NCBI RefSeq assembly: GCF_004010195.1 | Contig: NC_057754.1 | Span: 1,437,573-1,457,572, forward strand | Direction of reading: 5' to 3' | From: Chiloscyllium plagiosum | Lineage: Eukaryota | Length of the DNA stretch: 20,000 nt | Shown: positions 1 to 20,000 of the stretch, piece by piece | Layout of the letters: every line of letters begins with the position of its first letter | Numbering within the stretch: position 1 is the first letter of the stretch | Notes under the pieces: generated by a model | What the model was told of the DNA's origin: nothing | What the model saw: only the letters and a program-made list of their open reading frames with translations | Database searches by the model: none | Made by a program: the position numbers and the translations under genes

Positions 1-2501
1 CGGAGGGTCAGCGCTGAGGGAGCGGGCTCTGTCGGAGGGTCAGCGCTGAGGGAGCGGGCTCTGTCGGAGGGTCAGCGCTGAGGGAGCGGGCTCTGTCGGA
101 GGGTCAGCGCTGAGGGAGCGGGCTCTGTCGGAGGGTCAGCGCTGAGGGAGCGGGCTCTGTCGGAGGGTCAGCGCTGAGGGAGCGGGCTCTGTCGGAGGGT
201 CAGCGCTGAGGGAGCGGGCTCTGTCGGAGGGTCAGCGCTGAGGGAGCGGGCTCTGTCGGAGGGTCAGCGCTGAGGGAGCGGGCTCTGTCGGAGGGTCAGC
301 GCTGAGGGAGCGGGCTCTGTCGGAGGGTCAGCGCTGAGGGAGCGGGCTCTGTCGGAGGGTCAGCGCTGAGGGAGCGGGCTCTGTCGGAGGGTCAGCGCTG
401 AGGGAGCGGGCTCTGTCGGAGGGTCAGCGCTGAGGGAGCGGGCTCTGTCGGAGGGTCAGCGCTGAGGGAGCGGGCTCTGTCGGAGGGTCAGCGCTGAGGG
501 AGCGGGCTCTGTCGGAGGGTCAGCGCTGAGGGAGCGGGCTCTGTCGGAGGGTCAGCGCTGAGGGAGCGGGCTCTGTCGGAGGGTCAGCGCTGAGGGAGCG
601 GGCTCTGTCGGAGGGTCAGCGCTGAGGGAGCGGGCTCTGTCGGAGGGTCAGCGCTGAGGGAGCGGGCTCTGTCGGAGGGTCAGCGCTGAGGGAGCGGGCT
701 CTGTCGGAGGGTCAGCGCTGAGGGAGCGGGCTCTGTCGGAGGGTCAGCGCTGAGGGAGCGGGCTCTGTCGGAGGGTCAGCGCTGAGGGAGCGGGCTCTGT
801 CGGAGGGTCAGCGCTGAGGGAGCGGGCTCTGTCGGAGGGTCAGCGCTGAGGGAGCGGGCTCTGTCGGAGGGTCAGCGCTGAGGGAGCGGGCTCTGTCGGA
901 GGGTCAGCGCTGAGGGAGCGGGCTCTGTCGGAGGGTCAGCGCTGAGGGAGCGGGCTCTGTCGGAGGGTCAGCGCTGAGGGAGCGGGCTCTGTCGGAGGGT
1001 CAGCGCTGAGGGAGCGGGCTCTGTCGGAGGGTCAGCGCTGAGGGAGCGGGCTCTGTCGGAGGGTCAGCGCTGAGGGAGCGGGCTCTGTCGGAGGGTCAGC
1101 GCTGAGGGAGCGGGCTCTGTCGGAGGGTCAGCGCTGAGGGAGCGGGCTCTGTCGGAGGGTCAGCGCTGAGGGAGCGGGCTCTGTCGGAGGGTCAGCGCTG
1201 AGGGAGCGGGCTCTGTCGGAGGGTCAGCGCTGAGGGAGCGGGCTCTGTCGGAGGGTCAGCGCTGAGGGAGCGGGCTCTGTCGGAGGGTCAGCGCTGAGGG
1301 AGCGGGCTCTGTCGGAGGGTCAGCGCTGAGGGAGCGGGCTCTGTCGGAGGGTCAGCGCTGAGGGAGCGGGCTCTGTCGGAGGGTCAGCGCTGAGGGAGCG
1401 GGCTCTGTCGGAGGGTCAGCGCTGAGGGAGCGGGCTCTGTCGGAGGGTCAGCGCTGAGGGAGCGGGCTCTGTCGGAGGGTCAGCGCTGAGGGAGCGGGCT
1501 CTGTCGGAGGGTCAGCGCTGAGGGAGCGGGCTCTGTCGGAGGGTCAGCGCTGAGGGAGCGGGCTCTGTCGGAGGGTCAGCGCTGAGGGAGCGGGCTCTGT
1601 CGGAGGGTCAGCGCTGAGGGAGCGGGCTCTGTCGGAGGGTCAGCGCTGAGGGAGCGGGCTCTGTCGGAGGGTCAGCGCTGAGGGAGCGGGCTCTGTCGGA
1701 GGGTCAGCGCTGAGGGAGCGGGCTCTGTCGGAGGGTCAGCGCTGAGGGAGCGGGCTCTGTCGGAGGGTCAGCGCTGAGGGAGCGGGCTCTGTCGGAGGGT
1801 CAGCGCTGAGGGAGCGGGCTCTGTCGGAGGGTCAGCGCTGAGGGAGCGGGCTCTGTCGGAGGGTCAGCGCTGAGGGAGCGGGCTCTGTCGGAGGGTCAGC
1901 GCTGAGGGAGCGGGCTCTGTCGGAGGGTCAGCGCTGAGGGAGCGGGCTCTGTCGGAGGGTCAGCGCTGAGGGAGCGGGCTCTGTCGGAGGGTCAGCGCTG
2001 AGGGAGCGGGCTCTGTCGGAGGGTCAGCGCTGAGGGAGCGGGCTCTGTCGGAGGGTCAGCGCTGAGGGAGCGGGCTCTGTCGGAGGGTCAGCGCTGAGGG
2101 AGCGGGCTCTGTCGGAGGGTCAGCGCTGAGGGAGCGGGCTCTGTCGGAGGGTCAGCGCTGAGGGAGCGGGCTCTGTCGGAGGGTCAGCGCTGAGGGAGCG
2201 GGCGCTGTCGGAGGGTCAGCGCTGAGGGAGCGGGCTCTGTCGGAGGGTCAGCGCTGAGGGAGCGGGCTCTGTCGGAGGGTCAGCGCTGAGGGAGCGGGCT
2301 CTGTCGGAGGGTCAGCGCTGAGGGAGCGGGCTCTGTCGGAGGGTCAGCGCTGAGGGAGCGGGCTCTGTCGGAGGGTCAGCGCTGAGGGAGCGGGCACTGT
2401 CGGAGGGTCAGCGCTGAGGGAGCGGGCACTGTCGGAGGGTCAGCGCTGAGGGAGCGGGCACTGTCGGAGGGTCAGCGCTGAGGGAGCGGGCACTGTCGGA
2501 G
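1..2501 (+). repeat. 32-bp minisatellite (CGGAGGGTCAGCGCTGAGGGAGCGGGCTCTGT), about 78 copies, open at the window start
   Basis: Near-perfect 32-bp periodicity. One GGGCGCTGT variant near 2203 and GGGCACTGT variants in the last four units. TGA stops on both strands, so non-coding. Confidence 0.99.
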
Positions 2502-3184
2502 TTGCCATTATTTCAGATGAGACATTAAATGGAGAACCTATCTTTTCTTTTTATTCGTTCCTGGGATAAGGGTGTCACTGGCTGGGCCCAGCACATATTA
2601 CCCATCCTTTATTACCCAGAGGGCAATTCATAGTCAACCACATTGCTGTGGGTCTGGAGACATGAGTAGGCCGAGACCAGGTAAGTATGGCAGTTTCCAT
2701 TAGTCACCCAGATGGGCCTTTCCAACAGTTGGCAATGGATTCATGGCCACCATTAGACTCCGAATTCCAGATAGTTACTGAATTCAAATTGCACCATCTG
2801 CCATGGTGGGTTTCGAACCCGGGTCCCCAGAACATTACCCCAGTCCAGTGATAATACCACTAGGCCATCACATCCCCTTGTTAGCAGGGGGGGTGGGGGG
2901 AACATCCCACATTCACTGCTGCAAGAAGGTAGGGAGGGGGTCTGATGTTCTCCCCGGGGTCCCGAGGCTGATGTTGATCCCTCGACCAACGTTGCTAAAC
3001 ACAGACGATCCAGGTCAGTCCCACATTGCTGTGCGCGTGGGATCTTGCTGTGCAGCAACCGACTGCTGCAGTCTCTACCTTCCCAAATGAGCCCGCCGGT
3101 CAAAAAATAAAGTCCTTTACTGGCTGTTTCACACTTGGAGAGGGCCCGGCCTCCTGAAAGGCGCTCTTCAAATGCAGAGCTTTT
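2470..3184 (+). mobile_element. DeuSINE (SacSINE1/AmnSINE1-like) central and 3' region, interrupted by another SINE at about 2545-2871
   Basis: GCACTGTCGGAGTTGCCATTATTTCAGATGAGACATTAAA (about 2490-2530). Then TTCTCCCCGGGGTCC..ATCCCTCGACCAAC..CACATTGCTGTGCGCGTGGGATCTTGCTGTGC..GAAAGGCGCTCTTCAAATGCA (about 2945-3175). These match the recalled Deu-domain and tail motifs in colinear order. Confidence 0.7.
2545..2871 (-). mobile_element. tRNA-derived SINE (family 2, not HE1), near full length
   Basis: Minus-strand head with A-box TGGCCTAGTGG and B-box GGTTCGAAACC. Body CTCCAGACCCACAGCAATGTGGTTGACT. A-rich tail GAACGAATAAAAAGAAAA. Related copies at 17577-17723 and 18375-18877. Confidence 0.8.
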
Positions 3185-3614
3185 ACGGAGCAGCTCTTTG
3201 GCTAGTGATGGGGCCGGGAGGGGAGGGTTGCTGGATAAGGACAAAAATAAAACCCAGTGATGGGGAGAGGTGAGAGGCTCTCTCCTGATAACCACCAACC
3301 TCCCTCCTTCATCCTGACCCAGACTGGAGTTTATCCCAGGTCTCTGCTGGGGCCACAGAGAGACACACTCAGTATCTCTGGCTGTCCAGCCAGAGGCAGC
3401 TTGGGGAAGGAGGATACTGATAAGGTGGGGGTGGTGGTGGGGAAATGACAGCCACTGCCTGATAACAGGCATCTGCCGAGGAAAAGGGAAGGGGGAGGTC
3501 TCCCTCCAGGCTAACCACAGCTCTCCGATAGCCCAGCACTCAGAACCCACAATGACCTGTACTTCCAGCACCAGCAGCTCATAACACTGATAGTTACACA
3601 GCAAACAGGCCACT

Positions 3615-4508
3615 CCTTCCTCTGTCACCCGCTACCCCCTCCAGCCCCTACAACCCCTCCCTATCTCTGTATCCCCTCCAGCCCCTACACCCCCTCCCTA
3701 TCTCTGTANNNNNNNNNNNNNNNNNNNNNNNNNNNNNNNNNNNNNNNNNNNNNNNNNNNNNNNNNNNNNNNNNNNNNNNNNNNNNNNNNNNNNNNNNNNN
3801 NNNNNNNNNNNNNNNNNNNNNNNNNNNNNNNNNNNNNNNNNNNNNNNNNNNNNNNNNNNNNNNNNNNNNNNNNNNNNNNNNNNNNNNNNNNNNNNNNNNN
3901 NNNNNNNNNNNNNNNNNNNNNNNNNNNNNNNNNNNNNNNNNNNNNNNNNNNNNNNNNNNNNNNNNNNNNNNNNNNNNNNNNNNNNNNNNNNNNNNNNNNN
4001 NNNNNNNNNNNNNNNNNNNNNNNNNNNNNNNNNNNNNNNNNNNNNNNNNNNNNNNNNNNNNNNNNNNNNNNNNNNNNNNNNNNNNNNNNNNNNNNNNNNN
4101 NNNNNNNNNNNNNNNNNNNNNNNNNNNNNNNNNNNNNNNNNNNNNNNNNNNNNNNNNNNNNNNNNNNNNNNNNNNNNNNNNNNNNNNNNNNNNNNNNNNN
4201 NNNNNNNNNNNNNNNNNNNNNNNNNNNNNNNNNNNNNNNNNNNNNNNNNNNNNNNNNNNNNNNNNNNNNNNNNNNNNNNNNNNNNNNNNNNNNNNNNNNN
4301 NNNNNNNNNNNNNNNNNNNNNNNNNNNNNNNNNNNNNNNNNNNNNNNNNNNNNNNNNNNNNNNNNNNNNNNNNNNNNNNNNNNNNNNNNNNNNNNNNNNN
4401 NNNNNNNNNNNNNNNNNNNNNNNNNNNNNNNNNNNNNNNNNNNNNNNNNNNNNNNNNNNTCACTGTAACCCCCTCCAGCCCCTACCCCCTCCCTATCTCA
4501 GTCACCCT
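3615..4508 (+). repeat. About 37-39-bp minisatellite (CCCCTCCAGCCCCTACACCCCCTCCCTATCTCTGTA) spanning the N gap 3709-4459
   Basis: Units are visible on both sides of the gap. The reverse complement of the unit recurs at 19928-20000. Confidence 0.85.
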
Positions 4509-6087: not shown

Positions 6088-6850
6088 TAGAATCCTCAAG
6101 ATGTGCAGCACGGAAACAGACCCTTCGGCCCAACCCGTCTGTGCTGACTAGATATCCCAACCTAATCCAGTCCCGTTTGCCAGCACTTAGAGTACTAACA
6201 GTGTGGAAACAGGCCCTTCGGCCCAACAAGTCCACACCGACCCTCCGAAGAGCAACCCACCCAGATCCATTCCCCTACATTTACCCCTTCACCCAACACT
6301 GCAGGCAATTTAGCATGGCCAATCCACCCTAACCTGCACATTTTTTTGGACTGTGGGAGGAAACTGGAGCACCCAGAGGAAACTCACGCAGACACGGGGA
6401 GAATGTGCAAACTCCACGCAGACATTTGCCCGAAGCGGGAATTGAACCCGGGCCCCTGGCGCTGAGGCATCAGTGCTAACCACTGTGCCACCCACTTGAT
6501 CCCATATCCCTCCAAACCCTTCCTATTCATATACCCATCCAGATGGCTTTTAAATGTTGTGATTGCACCAGCCTCCACCACTTCCTCTGGCAGCTCATTC
6601 CATACACGTACCACCCTCTGCATGAAAAAGTTGCCCCTTAGGTCTCTTTTATATCTTTCCCCTTTAAATCTTTCCCCTCTCATCCTAAACCTATGCCCTC
6701 TAGCTCTGGACTCCTCTTATCCCATTTATTTATCCTATCCATGCCCCTCATGATTTTATAAACCTCTTGTAAGATCACCCCTCAGCCTCTGACACTCCAG
6801 GGAAAACAGCCCCAGCCTATTCAGCCCCTCCCTATGGCTCAAATCCTCCG
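6088..6850 (-). mobile_element. HER1-like (CR1) LINE 3' fragment split by a nested HE1 SINE
   Basis: FFMQRVVRVWNELPEEVVEAGAITTFKSHLDGYMNRKGLEGYG. The 3' UTR continues on the other side of the SINE. Confidence 0.92.
6189..6492 (-). mobile_element. HE1-type V-SINE nested in a LINE
   Basis: tRNA head GTGGCACAGTGGTTAGCAC..GGTTCAATTCC, V-domain GTGGAGTTTGCACATTCTCCCCGTGTCTGCGTG, HER1-like tail. CACTT is duplicated at 6184-6188 and 6493-6497. Confidence 0.93.
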
Positions 6851-7579: not shown

Positions 7580-7857
7580 CATTCATCATACAAACCTTAC
7601 TGTGTGGAAGCGGGCCATTCAGCCCATTGAGCCCACATTGACCCCCCCAAGAAGCAGCCCACCCTATCCCTCTATTTCCCATGGCCAATCCACCCTAAAC
7701 TGCACATCTTTGGTCTGTGGGAGGGAACCAGAGCACCTGGAGGAAACCCACACAGATACAGGGAGAATGTGCAAACTCCACACAGAGAGTCGCCTGAGGG
7801 TGGGATCAAACCCGGGTCCCCAACGCTACAAGGCAACAGTGCTAACTACTGAGCCAT
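7580..7857 (-). mobile_element. Older HE1-type V-SINE
   Basis: Diverged head, V-domain and LINE-derived tail in the same order as the other copies. Confidence 0.88.
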
Positions 7858-7864
7858 AGTGTTG

Positions 7865-8029: not shown

Positions 8030-8868
8030 TGTACAGGACATTGGTTAGGCTGCTTTTGTAATACTGCATTCAGTTCTGGTCTCCCTGCTATAAGAAGGAT
8101 GTTGTGGAACTTGAAAGGGTTCAGAAAAGATTTACAAGGATGTTGCCAGGGTTGGAGGGTTTGAGCTACAGGGAGAGGCTGAACAGGCTGGGGCTGTTTT
8201 CCCTGGAGCGTCAGAGACTGAGGGGTGACCTTATAGAGGTTTATAAAATCATGAGGGGCATGGATAGGGTAAATAGACAAAGTCTTTTCCCTGGGGTCGG
8301 GGAGTACAGAACTAGAGACCTGGGTTCAATTCCCTCCTCAGACGACTGACTGTGTGGAGTTTGCACATTCTCCCCGTGTCTGCGTGGGTTTCCTCCGGGT
8401 GCTCCGGTTTCCTCCCACAATCCAAAGATGTGCAGGTCAGGTGAATTGGCCATGCTAAATTGCCTGTAGTGTTAGGTAACGGGTAAATGTAGGGGTATGG
8501 GTGGGTTGCGCTTCGGCGGGTCGGTGTGGACTTGTTGGGCCGAAGGGCCTGTTTCCACACTGTAATGTAATCTAATCTAGAGGGCGCAGGTTTAGGGTGA
8601 GAGGGGAAAAATATAAAAAGAGACCCAAGGGGGCAACATTTTCACGCAGAGGGTGGTACGGATATGGAATGAGCTGCCAGAGGAAGTGGTGGAGGCTGGT
8701 ACAATGACAACATTTAAGAGGCATTTGGATGGGTATATGAATAGGAAGGGTTTGGAGGGATATGGGCCGGGTGCTGGCAAATGGGATTGGATTAGGTTGG
8801 GAATATCTGGTCGGCATGGATGGGTTGGGCTGAAGGGCCTGTTTCCGTACTGTACGTCTCGATGATTC
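8030..8868 (+). mobile_element. HER1-like (CR1) LINE 3' fragment split by a nested SINE
   Basis: ELERVQKRFTRMLPGLEGLSYRERLNRLGLFSLERQRLRGDLIEVYKIMRG, resuming as WNELPEEVVEAG. Confidence 0.95.
8318..8576 (+). mobile_element. 5'-truncated HE1 V-SINE with target-site duplication
   Basis: Starts just before the B-box. (TAATC)n tail. CTAGAG is duplicated at 8312-8317 and 8577-8582. Confidence 0.93.
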
Positions 8869-9479: not shown

Positions 9480-10020
9480 AGCAGCACAGAAACAGACCCT
9501 TCGGCCCAACCAGTCTGTGCTGACCCTAACCCCAAACTAAACTAGCCCCAGCTGCCCCATATCCCTCCAATCCCTTTCCTATCCAGGTCCTTATCCAAAT
9601 GTCTTTTAAATGTTGGAACTGTCCCCACACTCACCACTCCCTCAGCAGGTCTGTTCCACAAAGATGTCCAGCAGGGAAACAGACCCTTCAGCCCAACTCA
9701 CCCATGCCAACCAGATATCCTAACTTAAGCTAGTCCCATTTGTCAGCACTTGGTTCATATCCCACTAAACCCTTCCTATTCACATACCCATCCAGATGCC
9801 TTTTAAATGCTGTATCAGCCTCCACCACTTCCTCTGGCAGCTTGTTCCATACACGCACCACCCTCTGCGTGAAAAAGTTGCCCCTCAGGTCCCCTCTCAC
9901 CTTTAACCTATGCCCTCTAGTTTTGGACTCCCCACCCCAGGGGTAAAGCTATTTTCCCTATCCACCCCCACTACGAACCTTCATAAGGTCGCCCCTCAGC
10001 CCCAGCCTCTCTCTTATAGC
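9480..10020 (-). mobile_element. Two tandem HER1/CR1 LINE 3'-end fragments (about 9480-9660 and 9660-10020)
   Basis: GAAACAGACCCTTC terminal motif occurs twice, plus CCACCACTTCCTCTGGCAGC and AACCTATGCCCTCTAG consensus blocks. Confidence 0.88.
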
Positions 10021-10212: not shown

Positions 10213-10539
10213 TTTTTTAGATTAGATTAGATTAGATTACTTACGGTGTGGAAACAGGCCCTTTGGCCCAACAAGTCCACACCGACCCGCTGAAGCGCAA
10301 ACCACCCATTCCCCTACATTTACCCCTTTACCTAACACTACGGGCAATTTAGCATGGCCAATTCACTGACCCTGCACATCTTTGGACTGTGGGAGGAAAC
10401 CGGAGCACCCGGAGGAAACCCACGCAGACACGGGGAGAACGTGCAAACTCCACACAGTCAGTCGCCTGAGTCGGGAATTGAACCCGGGTCTCTGGCGCTG
10501 TGAGGCAGCAGTGCTAACCACTGTGCCACCGTGCCGCCC
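10213..10539 (-). mobile_element. Full-length, young-looking HE1 V-SINE
   Basis: Intact head GGGCGGCACGGTGGCACAGTGGTTAGCACTGCTGCCTCACAGCGCCAGAGACCCGGGTTCAATTCC, V-domain and (TAATC)n tail. Highly similar to the copies at 14251 and 18486. Confidence 0.96.
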
Positions 10540-10631
10540 ACTTTGGACAGGTGACTGGGTTTGAGTTGACAATCCCAGGCCCTTGTACCCCGGTCTCACT
10601 GACGCTGACCGTCAGATTCGTTGGCGCTTAC

Positions 10632-10797
10632 CGATTTTCTCCACAAGTTGAAGGATGACACCACCGATGTGCACATCGCCGTTCACTCTCAAGGTGATGG
10701 GATCCGCCTCAGGACCCAGTTCTTCCACAGTGATCTTCAGCTCCCATGATGCATCTATGTAGTCCCCGCTGGAAGTCTTGATGCCCCCCTGCGCCAT
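10632..10797 (-). CDS. FERMT3: Kindlin-3 (fermitin family homolog 3), first coding exon, F0 subdomain (55 codons + 1 nt)
   Basis: [55 protein letters not shown] matches the recalled human kindlin-3 N-terminus ([53 protein letters not shown]) better than kindlin-2 (MALDGIRMPDGCYADGTWEL). Strong Kozak context ACGATGG. Phase-1 donor G|GTAAGC at 10632/10631. Confidence 0.93.
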
Positions 10798-10840
10798 CGT
10801 TCAACATCCCTGGCAACAGCAAAAGGCAAGCGGGTCAGTC
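10798..10840 (-). promoter_or_regulatory. FERMT3: Splice acceptor and 12-nt 5' UTR portion of the FERMT3 start-codon exon (exon begins at 10809)
   Basis: Minus strand reads GACTGACCCGCTTGCCTTTTGCTGTTGCCAG|GGATGTTGAACGATG: branch-like CTGAC, pyrimidine tract, CAG. Confidence 0.85.
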
Positions 10841-10992: not shown

Positions 10993-11500
10993 GGAATACC
11001 GTGTTCAAATCTGCTTCTCCCTGCTATCGGTAGGATGTGAAACTTGGAAGGTTTACAAGGATGCTGGAGGGTTTGAGCTACAGGGCTGTAGGCTGGGGCT
11101 ATTTTCCCTGGAGGCTGAGGGGTGACCTTATAAAGGTTTATAAAATCATGAGGGGCATGGGTAGGATAAATAGACAAGGTCTTTTCTCTGGGGTCGGGGA
11201 GTCCAGAACTAGAGGACATAGGTTTAGGGTGAGAGGGGAAAGATTTAAAAGGGACCACTTTTTCACACAGAGGGTGGTGTGTGTGTGTGTGTGTGTGTGT
11301 GTGGAATGAGCTGCCAGAGGAAGTGGTGGAGGCTGGTACAATGACAGCATTTAAAAGGCATCTGGATGGGTATATGAATAGAAAGGGTTTGGAGGGATAT
11401 GGGCCGGGTGCTGGCAAATGGGACGAGATTAGGTTGGGATATCTGGTCGGCACGGACGAGTTGGACCAAAGGGTCTGTTTCCGTGCTGTACATCTCTCTG
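10993..11500 (+). mobile_element. HER1-like LINE 3' fragment with small deletions and an internal (GT)13 at 11277-11302
   Basis: RLRGDLIKVYKIMRG..FFTQRVV(GT)nWNELPEEVVEAG..GRVLANG, then the 3' UTR. Confidence 0.93.
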
Positions 11501-12385: not shown

Positions 12386-13019
12386 TAAAAAGAAAGATTT
12401 TATTCATATGGACCTTGGGACATCCTCATGACATACGTGTACACACACACGCACACCCACAAATTAGTCCATACTACTCCACGGGATGCCCACCATATGT
12501 ATTTCTCTGCATGTTGGTTGGTTGGTTGCTATGGCCCACAGTAAGTGGACAACCTTTATTTGGGCCTGGGGTCAAAGGGCAGAGTTGACCAGATCGTGAA
12601 ACAACCTAAACTCTGCTGAAGATACTTCACGGTGAGTTCCCATCAGGACACACGTGCAAGAGATTCACATTTCAGGTGGTCACAACCACTTACCCGACGG
12701 GGAACCGGATTGGTAGTTGGATGGCGATTGGCTGAACTGTTGCCGTGGGGAGCGGCAAGGCTCCTGGGTTGGTTAGGGCTTGTCCCAATGGCTGTGAGAG
12801 ATGTTGGCTAACGGACCCCTATTTTCAGCGATAGGCTTCTCAGGAGGTCTCTCCGAACGGAGTCACTCCGATTAACAGGCAGTGTTCAGGAATGGGGGGA
12901 GAGAGGGATCAGAGCTGCTCCCACTGTCTGGTGTGAGTGGGCCATTCTCCTGCTATCCCCCAGCTGGTGAATGGAAGACCTTGGAGTTAGGCCTTCCCAG
13001 TTTAATGAGTCTGACTTAC

Positions 13020-13050
13020 ATCCGTTTCTCCTTCCAGCTGAAGGCCAAGG
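13020..13050 (-). other. Candidate 31-nt non-coding 5' UTR micro-exon of FERMT3
   Basis: Minus strand TTCCTTCTGTGTGTATTCCTTATCGTAG|CCTTGGCCTTCAGCTGGAAGGAGAAACGGAT|GTAAGT, in non-repeat DNA. Splice signals only. Confidence 0.35.
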
Positions 13051-13221: not shown

Positions 13222-13393
13222 TGCTCTGTCAGCACTGACCCTCCCACAGTGCAGCACTCCCTCAGCACTGACCCTCCCACAGTGCAGCACTCCCTCAGCA
13301 CTGACCCTCCCACAGTGCCCGCTCCCTCAGCACTGACCCTCCGACAGTGCCCACTCCCTCAGCACTGACCCTCCGACAGCCCCCGCTCCCTCA
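13222..13393 (-). repeat. Second array of the 32-bp minisatellite family, reverse orientation, running into the gap 13394-13741
   Basis: Units such as CAGCACTGACCCTCCCACAGTGCAGCACTCCCT are reverse-complement variants of the unit at 1-2501. Confidence 0.93.
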
Positions 13394-13741: not shown

Positions 13742-13993
13742 CCTTAGGTCTCTTTTATATCTTTCCCCTCTCACCCTAAACCTATGCCCTCTAGTTCTGG
13801 ACTCCCTCACCCCAGGGAAAAGACCTTGTCTATTTACCCTATCCATGCCCCTCATGATTTTATAAACCTCTATATGGTCACCTCTCAGCCTCCGACGCAC
13901 CAGGGAAAACAGCCTCTCCCGATAGCTCAAACCCTCCAACCCTGGCAACATCCTTGTAAATCTTTTCTGAACCCTTTCGAGTTTCACAACATC
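13742..13993 (-). mobile_element. HER1-like LINE fragment
   Basis: KLERVQKRFTRMLPGLEGLSYRERL..RGDHIEVYKIMRGMDRV..RTRGHRFRVRG. Confidence 0.93.
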
Positions 13994-14063
13994 TTTTCGA
14001 CAGTAATTAGGAAGGCAAATGAAATTTCGGGTCTTTGTTCAAGTGGAGGCCTTGTTATAGCTG

Positions 14064-14582
14064 GGAGAAAGTGAGGCCTGCAGATGCTGGAGATCAGAGT
14101 CAAGAGCGTGGCGCTGGAAAAGCACAGCAGGTCAGGCAGCATCCGAGGAGCAGGAGAATCGACATTTTGCCCTTCATCAGGAATGTGCCAGTCATTATGC
14201 CCGAAACGTCGACTCTCCTGCTCCTCGGATGCTGCCTGACTGGCTGTGCTTAGATTAGATTACTTACAGTGTGGAAACAGGCCCTTCGGCCCAACAAGTC
14301 CACACCGACCCGCCGAAGCGTAACCCACCCATACCCCTACCCTTACATTTACCCCTTTAACTTAACACTACAGGCAATTTAGCATGGCCAATTCACCTGA
14401 CCTGCACATCTTTGGACAGTGGGAGGAAACCGGAGCACCCGGAGGAAACCCACACAGACACGGGGAGAATGTGCAAACTCCACACAGTCAGTCGCCTGAG
14501 TCGGGAATTGAACCCGGGTCTCTGGCGCTGTGAGGCAGCAGTGCTAACCACTGTGCCACCGTGCGTTCTCCAGCACCACACA
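14064..14582. mobile_element. Inverted pair of Penelope-like terminal-repeat fragments with degenerate hammerhead motifs; right arm interrupted by a SINE
   Basis: About 14107-14167 is the reverse complement of about 14204-14250 plus 14565-14582. CTGATGA lies on the minus strand (14180-14174) and GCCCGAAACGTC on the plus strand (14199-14210). Confidence 0.65.
14251..14564 (-). mobile_element. Near full-length HE1 V-SINE inserted into the inverted-repeat arm
   Basis: Head, V-domain and (TAATC)n tail present. The host arm GCTGTGCT..TTCTCCAGCACCACAC is split by it. Confidence 0.95.
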
Positions 14583-16714: not shown

Positions 16715-17551
16715 GTCATAGACTCCGTACAGTGTGGAAACAGGCCCAACAAGTCCATACAGACTCTCCGAAGGGTAACCCAACCAGACCCATTCCCCAT
16801 TATTCTACATTTACCCCTGACGAATGCACCTAATCTACACATCCCTGAATACGATGGGGCACTTTAGCACGGCCCATCCACCCTAACCTGCACATCCCTG
16901 GGCTCTATGGGACAATTTCCCATGGCCAATCCAACCTAACCTACACATCCCTGGGCACTATGGGGCAATTTCCCATGGCCAATCCACCCTAACCTGCACA
17001 TCCCTGGGCACTATGGGGAAATTTCCCACGGCCAATCCACCCTAACCTGCACATCCCTGGGCACTATGCGGCAATTTAGCACGGCCAATGCACCCTAACC
17101 TGCACATCCCTGGGCACTATGGGGCAATTTCCCACGGCCAATCCACCCTAACCTGCACATCCCTGGGCACTATGGGACAATTTCCCATGGCCAATCCACC
17201 CTAACCTACACATCCCTGAATACTACGGGCAATTTAGCATGGCCAATCCACCCTAATCTACACATCCCTGAACACCATGGGGCAATTTAGCATGGCCAAT
17301 CCACCCTAACCTACACATCCCTGAACACTATGGGCAATTTAGCACGGCCAATCCACCCTAACCTGTACATCCCTGAACACTATGGGGTAATTTCCCATGG
17401 CCAATTCACTTGGTCTCCACACCTTTGGACTGTGGGAGGAAACCGGAGCACTCGGAGGAAACCCACACAGACACAGGGGAGGATGTGCGAACCCCACACA
17501 GACAGTCACCTGGATTGTGAGAGACAGCAGTACTAATCACTGAGCCACCAA
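16715..17551 (-). mobile_element. HE1-type SINE with an internal array of 11 x 53-bp units (about 16841-17420)
   Basis: ATCCCTG unit starts at 16841, 16894, 16947, 17000, 17053, 17106, 17159, 17212, 17264, 17317 and 17369, between the tail and the V-domain. Confidence 0.92.
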
Positions 17552-17723: not shown

Positions 17724-18268
17724 TGGGGTGGCACAGTGGTTAGCACTACTGCGTCATCGCACCAGGGATCCAGTGATCCCACCCTCGGGCGACTGTCTGG
17801 GTGGAGTTTGCACGTTCTCCCCGTGTCTGTGTGGGGTTTCCTCCTGGTGCTCCGGTTTCCTCCCACAGTCCAAAGACGTGCAGGTTAGGGTGGATTAGCC
17901 ATGGGAAATTGTCCCATAGTGCCCAGGGATGTGCAGGTTAGAGTGGATTGGCCGTGGGAACTTGTCCCATAGTGCCCAGGGATGTGCAGGTTAGAGTGGG
18001 TTGGCCGTGGGAAATTGTCCCAGGGATGTGCAGGTTAGGGTGGATTGGCCGTGGGAAATTGTCCCATAGTGCCCAGGGATGTGCAGGTTAGGGTGGATTG
18101 GCCATGGGAAATTTTCCCATAGGGCCCAGGGATGTGCAGGCTAGGGGCAGTAGTCAGGGTAAATGAAGGAGAATGGGTCTGGGTGGGTTACTCTTCGGAG
18201 GGTTAGTGTGAATGTGTTGGGCTGAATGGTCTGTTTTTACATTGTAGGGATTCTATGATGATTCTATG
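17724..18268 (+). mobile_element. HE1-type SINE with about 5 internal 53-bp units
   Basis: Head GGGGTGGCACAGTGGTTAGCAC, V-domain, repeated GTGCAGGTTAGGGTGGATTGGCC, (ATTCTATG)n tail. AATAGA is duplicated at 17718-17723 and 18269-18274. Confidence 0.92.
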
Positions 18269-18374: not shown

Positions 18375-18877
18375 AGGAGATGGTCTATTGTATTACCATG
18401 GACTGTTATTCCAGAAACCCAGGTTCGATTCCCGCCAAGGGAAGATGGGAGAATTGAAATTCAATAAAAAACTGGAATTAAGGATCGGTGGCCCAGTGGT
18501 TAGCACTGCTGCCTCACAGCGCCAGAGACCCGGGTTCAATTCCCGCCTCAGACGACTGACTGTGTGGAGTTTGCATGTTCTCCCCGTGTCTGCGTGGGTT
18601 TCCTCTGGGTGCTCCGGTCTCCTCCCACAATCCAAAGATGTGCAGATCAGGTGAATTGGCCATACTAAATTGCCCATAGTGTTAGGTAAGGGGTAAATGT
18701 AGTGGTATGGGTGGGTTGCGCTTCGGCGGGTCGGTGTGGACTTGTTGGGCCGAAGGGCCTGTTTCCACACTGTAATGTAAGGTAATGTAATGTAATCTAA
18801 TCTAATGGCGACCATTGCCGATTGTCAGAAAAAAATCCCTTCTAGTTCACGAATGTCCTTCAGGGAGGAACCTGCCA
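18375..18877 (+). mobile_element. Family-2 SINE interrupted by HE1 at 18486-18803
   Basis: GGTTCGATTCCC..GAAATTCAATAAAAACTGGAATTAAG | TCTAATGGCGACCATTG..GTTCACGAATGTCCTTCAGGGAGGA is colinear with the copy at 2545-2871. Confidence 0.75.
18486..18803 (+). mobile_element. Young-looking HE1 V-SINE
   Basis: Head, B-box, V-domain and (TAATG/TAATC)n tail. Confidence 0.95.
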
Positions 18878-19328
18878 CAGAATCATAGAATCCCTACAGT
18901 GTGGAAACAGGCCCTTCAGCCCAACAGGTCCATACTGACCCTCCACCAGACCTATTCCCCTACCCTATATTTACCTCTGACTAATGCACCTAAACTGCAC
19001 ATCCCTGGGCACTATGGGACAATTTCCCACAGCCAATCCACCCTAACCTACACATCCCTGAACACTATGGGACAATTTCCCATGGCCAATCCACCCTAAC
19101 CTGTACATCCCTGGGCACTACAGGATTATTTAGCACGGCCAATCCACCCTAACCTGCACAACTTTGAACTGTGGGAGGAAACTGGAGCATCTGTAGGAAA
19201 CTGGAGCATCTGTAGGAAACCCCTGCAGACACGGGGAGAACGTGCAAACTTCACATCGACAATTGCCTGTGGGTGGGATCAAACCAGGGTCCCTGGCACT
19301 GGGAGGCAGCAAATGCTAACCACTGAGG
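18878..19328 (-). mobile_element. HE1-type SINE with 3 internal 53-bp units and a 19-bp duplication in the V-domain
   Basis: ATCCCTG at 19001, 19054 and 19107. GGAAACTGGAGCATCTGTA occurs twice at about 19177-19214. Confidence 0.9.
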
Positions 19329-19887: not shown

Positions 19888-20000
19888 TACAGACACACAC
19901 ACAGACACACACACAGACACACAGGCGATGTAGGGGCTGGAGGGGGTGTGACAGAGATAGGGAGGGGGTGTAGGGGCTGGAGGGGGGTGTGACAAAGAAA
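19888..20000 (-). repeat. (ACAGACACACAC)n simple repeat followed by the start of a 38-39-bp minisatellite (reverse of 3615-4508)
   Basis: TGTAGGGGCTGGAGGGGGTGTGACAGAGATAGGGAGGGGG units from about 19928 to the window end. Confidence 0.85.

Follow-up and report, generated by a model that had tools for sequence, protein, structure and literature searches.

SVA and other VNTR-bearing retroposons carry a GC-rich VNTR within a non-autonomous retroposon. The closest described systems are the squamate SINE-derived satellites sSat1-3 (Vassetzky et al. 2023, PMC10702118), whose tandem unit is an internal portion of a SINE. Usually one sSat end continues to the SINE terminus, while in minor classes neither end or both ends do so; the arrays hold up to about 1000 units, and the units are 89% alike across loci versus 64% for the SINEs. 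The authors left open whether such satellites occur outside squamates. An origin from a transposable element (TE) is ordinary for a minisatellite, since at least 23% of human mini/satellites are TE-derived (PMC3389668).

In this study, we analysed a window of 20,000 nucleotides of shark DNA, meaning the whole stretch, which contains two arrays of a 32-33-bp repeat. Measured against the sSat features, the shark array has a unit that is an internal piece of a tRNA-SINE and contains at least four middle units. The terminal unit of the first array continues into SINE sequence, and the visible end of the second array, which lacks SINE sequence, corresponds to a minor sSat class. Homogenisation is seen within loci (73/78 units) and between them (29-30/32 letters), and, as in the shark arrays, sSat units from different loci resemble one another more closely than the SINEs do, and the long loci are the most uniform. 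The differences are the unit length (32-33 bp versus about 70-290 nt for sSats), the DeuSINE parent and the host, a shark-like fish instead of a squamate. TE-derived human minisatellites, as summarised in the source, reflect local expansion, whereas one derived form of the shark unit is apparently present at many loci. Unlike SVA, array 2 has no flank, and there was no sign here of array and flanks moving jointly. The repeat looks like a DeuSINE-derived minisatellite adjoining the conserved core, with one family common to several loci; the route of origin is known and seemingly undescribed in sharks. No earlier report of this shark repeat was found in the literature searched, which comprised openly accessible journals and not the repeat databases Repbase and Dfam.

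The left end of the window is occupied by the first array:

1-2501, plus strand: array 1, a GC-rich 32-bp minisatellite of 78 units, delimited by Tandem Repeats Finder and phased unit comparison; its left end lies beyond the window

Tandem Repeats Finder placed array 1 at 1-2501 with a period of 32, 78.2 copies and 99% matches. After the units had been cut in phase, 73/78 were identical, unit 69 had one change, and units 75-78, the 3'-most four, shared one change at which they carry the ancestral letter. These results showed that the 2.5-kb minisatellite recognised at the left of the window by the first-pass annotation is real. Relative to the family majority, array 1 has two T-to-C changes that create new CpGs, giving 3 CpG per unit. 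GC-biased conversion is a candidate process that fits these changes, the GC content of the window being near 52%. Array 1 had a CpG observed/expected ratio of 0.86, against 0.48 for the flank and tail. The window GC is compatible with, but no evidence for, a place at shark chromosome ends or on small chromosomes; PMC10620051 describes an enrichment of simple tandem repeats on the short chromosomes of sharks. Folding of array 1 was no better than that of shuffles (z -0.9 to -1.4), and array 2 units folded slightly better than shuffles into a small hairpin (z = -2.0). Each unit has three G-tracts, with a G4Hunter-style mean of 0.88-0.97 and a borderline best window of 1.2-1.3. The Rfam search returned 11 matches, every one under the gathering score, and ARAGORN found no tRNA genes. 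A third minisatellite, 37-bp and C-rich, is present at 3636-3708 and 4460-4500, on either side of an N run, and reversed at 19930-20000 (minus strand).

To the right of array 1, the following features were identified:

2473-2501, plus strand: last unit of array 1, in register with SINE2-2_CM 111-140 as printed (23/30 columns by hand, one gap)
2502-2543, plus strand: decayed start of the Deu (Nin) core, SINE2-2_CM 141-181 as printed (29/42 columns by hand; extra base at 2510)
about 2544-2875, ends approximate, minus strand: nested SINE with a tRNA-type head, from a different family of high copy number, recognised by its A and B boxes, its depth and a relative at 18379-18479
2876-2960, plus strand: degraded remainder of the Deu core, lining up by eye, unscored, with the printed SINE2-2_CM 182-258
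2961-3184, plus strand: probably the 3' body of this DeuSINE copy together with its tail, with a modest depth excess at 3020-3077

The comparison used elephant-shark SINE2-2_CM, which we infer to be SacSINE1-CM; positions 93-258 are printed in alignment with hagfish EbuSINE2 in the supplement of PMC5786205. The last unit and flank were colinear with the printed SINE2-2_CM at 52/72 columns, counted by hand with no computed score against a consensus from elephant shark and not from the host lineage itself. The unbroken passage of the last unit into the flank, described in the first-pass annotation, is borne out by the sequence, and the consensus alignment it had proposed was colinear, by hand, for the unit, the core start and the core end of the printed segment. 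A 17-nt motif across the printed unit/core border of SINE2-2_CM had a single match in the window, at 2490-2506 with 2 mismatches; the chance expectation at 3 mismatches or fewer is 0.07, and 14/200 shuffles contained such a match. All 5/5 CpGs of the printed SINE2-2_CM 141-181 are lost in the 2502-2543 flank, while the internal CpG of the last unit is retained. The extra base at 2510 is missing from one contig aligned at the locus. Positions 2960-3184 presumably comprise the Deu 3' part and an L2-type tail, the tail resemblance lying at 3100-3184. Contig depth was 85-174 at 3020-3077 versus 4.6-17 in unique flank.

The nested SINE has its A box at 2867-2857 and its B box at 2819-2809, a summed contig depth of 10^3 to 7 x 10^5, and a 70% alike relative at 18379-18479; no target-site duplication was found at its ends. 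Both the nested insertion and the return of SINE-like sequence beyond it are thus as first annotated, except that the SINE resumes at about 2876, slightly earlier than the claimed 2900. Since the unit and flank are colinear with SINE2-2_CM and the SINE resumes past the insertion, the reading of the array unit as a segment of a chondrichthyan DeuSINE (SacSINE1 / SINE2-2_CM type) is supported, and the 32-bp unit is a DeuSINE piece as had been proposed. Compared with SacSINE1 / SINE2-2_CM (PMC5499810, PMC5786205), the array 1 locus is colinear for the unit, core start and core end, with a body segment amplified 78-fold, a changed junction and a copy that is interrupted and decayed. From organism B, a 184-letter record aligned over 2473-2656 with 4 differences and a 539-letter record over 2890-3295 with 18, so the interrupted SINE locus is older than the split of organism A (the host) and organism B.

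The unit had been described as lying inside the conserved domain. A vertebrate Deu domain of 330 bp is said to go back to Nishihara's work of 2006. In the wide sense, the vertebrate Deu domain is likewise given as 330 bp in PMC4824008. PMC7245038 (Fig. S4) aligns the Deu core common to amniotes and hagfish, AmnSINE1 213-343 with EbuSINE2 128-268, and its alignment begins at the equivalent of SINE2-2_CM 141, whereas the unit spans 109-141. The printed SINE2-2_CM 109-140 agreed by hand with hagfish EbuSINE2 at 14/32 positions, and the 22 core positions that follow agreed at 19/22. Because the end of the unit coincides with the start of the core in that figure, the unit is, as judged from these alignments, next to the published Deu core and not within it, which does not support the first description as worded. 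PMC5499810 gives the start of the SacSINE1 matches as position 134 for lamprey, 124 for zebrafish and 7 for coelacanth, so the 3' third of the unit may overlap the zebrafish-shared part of SacSINE1 and thereby the wider 330-bp domain.

The second array lies farther to the right:

13228-13393, minus strand: array 2, five visible units (three of 32 bp, two of 33 bp) with the same derived junction as array 1; its 5' end is lost in an N run

At its visible 3' end, array 2 stops mid-unit and is followed by unrelated DNA. When the flank and tail of the array 1 locus were compared with the next kilobase, neither scored above shuffles (34/200 and 166/200 shuffles as good), so that no Deu flank was seen beside array 2. 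The 33-bp unit matched the printed SINE2-2_CM 111-141 at 26/31 positions, ungapped and by hand. The printed SINE2-2_CM contains the same three bases at 109-111 and at 142-144, a direct repeat with a spacing of 33 bp. After GGAGG, the junction reads GT in both arrays, whereas plain duplication of the printed SINE2-2_CM would give TG. GT is also the junction carried by the most frequent loose ends beyond 2501 in runs X10 and X21. The three 32-bp units of array 2 were 29-30/32 alike to array 1. At 2455, 2476 and 2487, most aligned letters were those of the second unit of array 2; at 2476 in run X1 this letter accounted for 2.44 of 2.82 million depth, and at 2487 it was a minority in contigs and a majority in raw reads. 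The common derived junction and the 29-30/32 likeness of the units, set against the loss of 5/5 CpGs in the flank, argue for a single origin. Among the two arrays seen, each at one end, this points to probable common descent of the units followed by spread and homogenisation between loci, and not to new seeding in each SINE. Coding-exon-like stretches with an open frame and splice-like edges occur at 10617-10812 (minus strand) and 12970-13040, so the window repeats may be intronic.

We estimated abundance from contig depth in three runs, two from organism A and one from organism B, taking records that were 80% or more alike. On the unit, depth summed to 1.0-2.6 million, versus 4.6-17 in unique flank; the 1.3-4.3 x 10^5-fold excess gives an order of magnitude and no copy number. 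This suggests, as a rough figure, about 10^5 units genome-wide. Depth at 2510 was 27, 9 and 53 across the three runs. Elephant-shark SacSINE1 copies have a mean divergence of 22% (PMC5499810), and because the 80% cut-off hides such old copies, flank depth has little power on the share of arrays with flanks. Among raw RNA reads, 96 showed a 64-base tandem return, indicating that the 32-bp period is real in the species; unit reads were on both strands and multi-locus, and gave no indication of a function. No RNA datasets were listed for 2466-3640.

The repeat was also searched for in other sources. With the plus-strand frame of array 2, the protein search gave 0/2028 candidates; the other frame gave 17 matches, of which 5 were the same repeat (P0003, P0008, P0009, P0012, P0018) and 12 were dropped as unrelated repeats. 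Two more were found beyond these five, giving 7 array-bearing ORFs in total. At the peptide level, which is a weak test, 0/3 informative exits among the 7 showed a Deu core-like 3' exit; array entry was visible in 2 ORFs, and the P0012 entry resembles the SINE 5' body with one indel, equally weak at the peptide level. A degenerate unit pattern found 0 stretches in viral sequences and 2 in prokaryotes, which were single matches in bacterial MAGs; 5 metagenome stretches were rejected, each being one chance match within DNA that is otherwise unrelated. Scanning viral sequences with P0008 turned up one match of 11 residues, which is not an array and was likewise set aside.

The window also contains V-SINE copies, which we take to be HE1-type. 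The bivalve V-SINE primer matched them at 19/20 letters by eye, supporting their V-domain. Three copies carry internal arrays:

16829-17409: 53-bp array of 11 units in an HE1-type copy, head and tail present
17878-18146: 53-bp array of 5.2 units in an HE1-type copy, head and tail present
18989-19160: 53-bp array of 3.2 units in an HE1-type copy, head and tail present

Six copies are without an array:

6187-6497, HE1-type copy
7585-7860, HE1-type copy
8306-8579, HE1-type copy
10227-10534, HE1-type copy
14250-14564, HE1-type copy
18486-18790, HE1-type copy

The 53-bp arrays terminate in a partial repeat of the start of the unit, which is a likely array seed. As all three lie between an HE1-type head and tail, in-place expansion inside SINEs occurs in this genome. 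Four of the six array-free copies are 91-94% alike, and at least three of the six interrupt older elements: a LINE-like piece encloses the copy at 8306, LINE-like pieces lie on either side of the copy at 6187, and the copy at 18486 interrupts a relative of the nested SINE. Fragments of one LINE-like 3' end, 75-90% alike, are found at 8060-8860, 6501-6849, 9482-10005, 10995-11496 and 13747-13996. A long inverted repeat at 14141-14230 had sub-threshold microRNA matches on both strands and is probably part of another short repeat.

The HE1-type tails contain a 14-nt motif resembling the array junction:

6235-6248, minus strand: HE1-type tail motif, 13/14 letters of the array junction
18195-18208, plus strand: HE1-type tail motif, 13/14 letters of the array junction
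6248 (minus strand), 8513, 14316 (minus strand), 18195 and 18723: all tail motif sites at 12-13/14

The junction 14-mer matched nine HE1-type tails at 13/14 in 2, at 12/14 in 3 and at a best of 11 in 4, and the 5 window sites with at least 12/14 matches beyond the arrays were all in these tails. A score of 13/14 was reached in 0/2000 shuffles for the junction 14-mer and in 4/2000 for any of the 32 phases, the best phase being the junction; the shuffles preserved base composition only, and the match was found post hoc.

On balance, we consider it probable, though far from assured, that the arrays belong to a neutral SINE-derived minisatellite family that arose by a single duplication, grew locally and was exchanged between loci via old SINE landing sites. 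By the alignment, the unit is the DeuSINE segment of about 33 bp that separates the tRNA head from the Deu core. A single duplication may have occurred, probably at the 3-base direct repeat 33 bp apart in the SINE; the junction would have gained a two-letter change not expected from plain duplication, and a 1-bp loss would then have produced the 32-bp deletion variant. Arrays would then have grown locally, with ectopic recombination or gene conversion passing them from one locus to another. Their landing sites would be old SINE copies, a role that would leave an array flush with a decayed Deu core (array 1) or without SINE flank (array 2). In array 1, turnover may have spread one variant to the 73/78 identical units while the ancestral letter survived at the array border, a pattern that is seen directly.

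Several other explanations bear on the same evidence. The array might mark a DeuSINE subfamily with a short internal VNTR that was retrotransposed in an SVA-like manner, with later in-place expansion, homogenisation and some flank loss; we rate this as unlikely, yet as the main rival. It would account at once for the common junction and the flush 3' flank, and it agrees with the SINE-like residues ahead of the array in P0012 (peptide level, one indel needed) and with the head, array and tail of the three 53-bp HE1-type arrays. However, array 2 terminates mid-unit against unrelated sequence, the array 1 flank is much more decayed than the units and holds a nested insertion, and single-copy equivalents at 2510 number just 2-6, the last being a weak test. 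On the original annotation, every array would have arisen independently from the Deu domain of the SINE copy at its own locus, which was to explain the second array. The array 1 unit is indeed in register with its flank, and the 3-base repeat 33 bp apart together with the small hairpin (z = -2.0, array 2 units) could be a hotspot. Independent duplications, however, would not have the two-letter junction change and the 1-bp deletion in common, and the units of independently decayed copies would not agree at 29-30/32; moreover, array 2 shows no Deu flank where its 3' end is visible while sharing the derived junction of array 1, and the unit ends where the core in the published figure starts. We therefore hold separate seeding to be very improbable, and the proposed explanation of the second array was not supported. 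The junction letters could instead have been copied from an HE1-type V-SINE tail bridging the end and start of the DeuSINE segment, so that the founding unit was a chimera; this would replace the duplication step above and is compatible both with recombinational spread and with a VNTR-bearing SINE subfamily. In its favour are the matches of 13/14 in 2/9 tails and 12/14 in 3/9, with 0/2000 shuffles at 13. Against it, 4/9 copies reached 11 at best, the shuffles kept composition only, and several repeat families might have supplied such a match. Because the match was noticed after the fact and the DeuSINE already accounts for 12/14 letters, we judge this chimera to be distinctly unlikely. The fuller version, in which a shark minisatellite of about 10^5 units came from one chimeric DeuSINE/HE1 joint, with the body looped on the HE1 tail motif, and spread by recombination onto old DeuSINE copies, seems to us more doubtful still. 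The derived changes add G-tracts, bringing them to three per unit, and could render the repeat G-quadruplex-prone and unstable.

The near-perfect 2.5-kb length could also be an assembly or polishing artefact over a far shorter array. No aligned record spans array 1, contig alignment reached two units at most, and N runs lie beside other tandem repeats in the window; but the array 1 variants are polar and not uniform, and the 64-base tandem return was seen in 96 raw reads, which makes an artefact a poor explanation in our judgement. A selected regulatory role of the array, inherited from the Deu domain, deserves next to no credence. AmnSINE1 copies are mammalian enhancers (PMC4824008, PMC3234267), and tandem units are present in raw RNA reads. 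On the other side, the unit lies beyond the core of the published figure and is poorly kept in hagfish (14/32), and the RNA reads are multi-locus and on both strands. In PMC3234267, the AmnSINE1 enhancer example uses the 3' half, 257-570, distant from the unit segment. No evidence was found here for the enhancer link via the Deu domain suggested in the first-pass annotation, the flank being decayed and interrupted.

The minisatellite has no bearing on Deu-domain enhancer exaptation. The window presents two SINE families with internal arrays, of which the HE1-type arrays have both ends in 3/3 cases and the DeuSINE arrays do not, and this would allow a direct test of in-place growth versus inter-locus spread. 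If the pattern holds genome-wide, a source would be identified for one abundant simple tandem repeat of shark genomes, and SINE-derived satellites would be extended past squamates.
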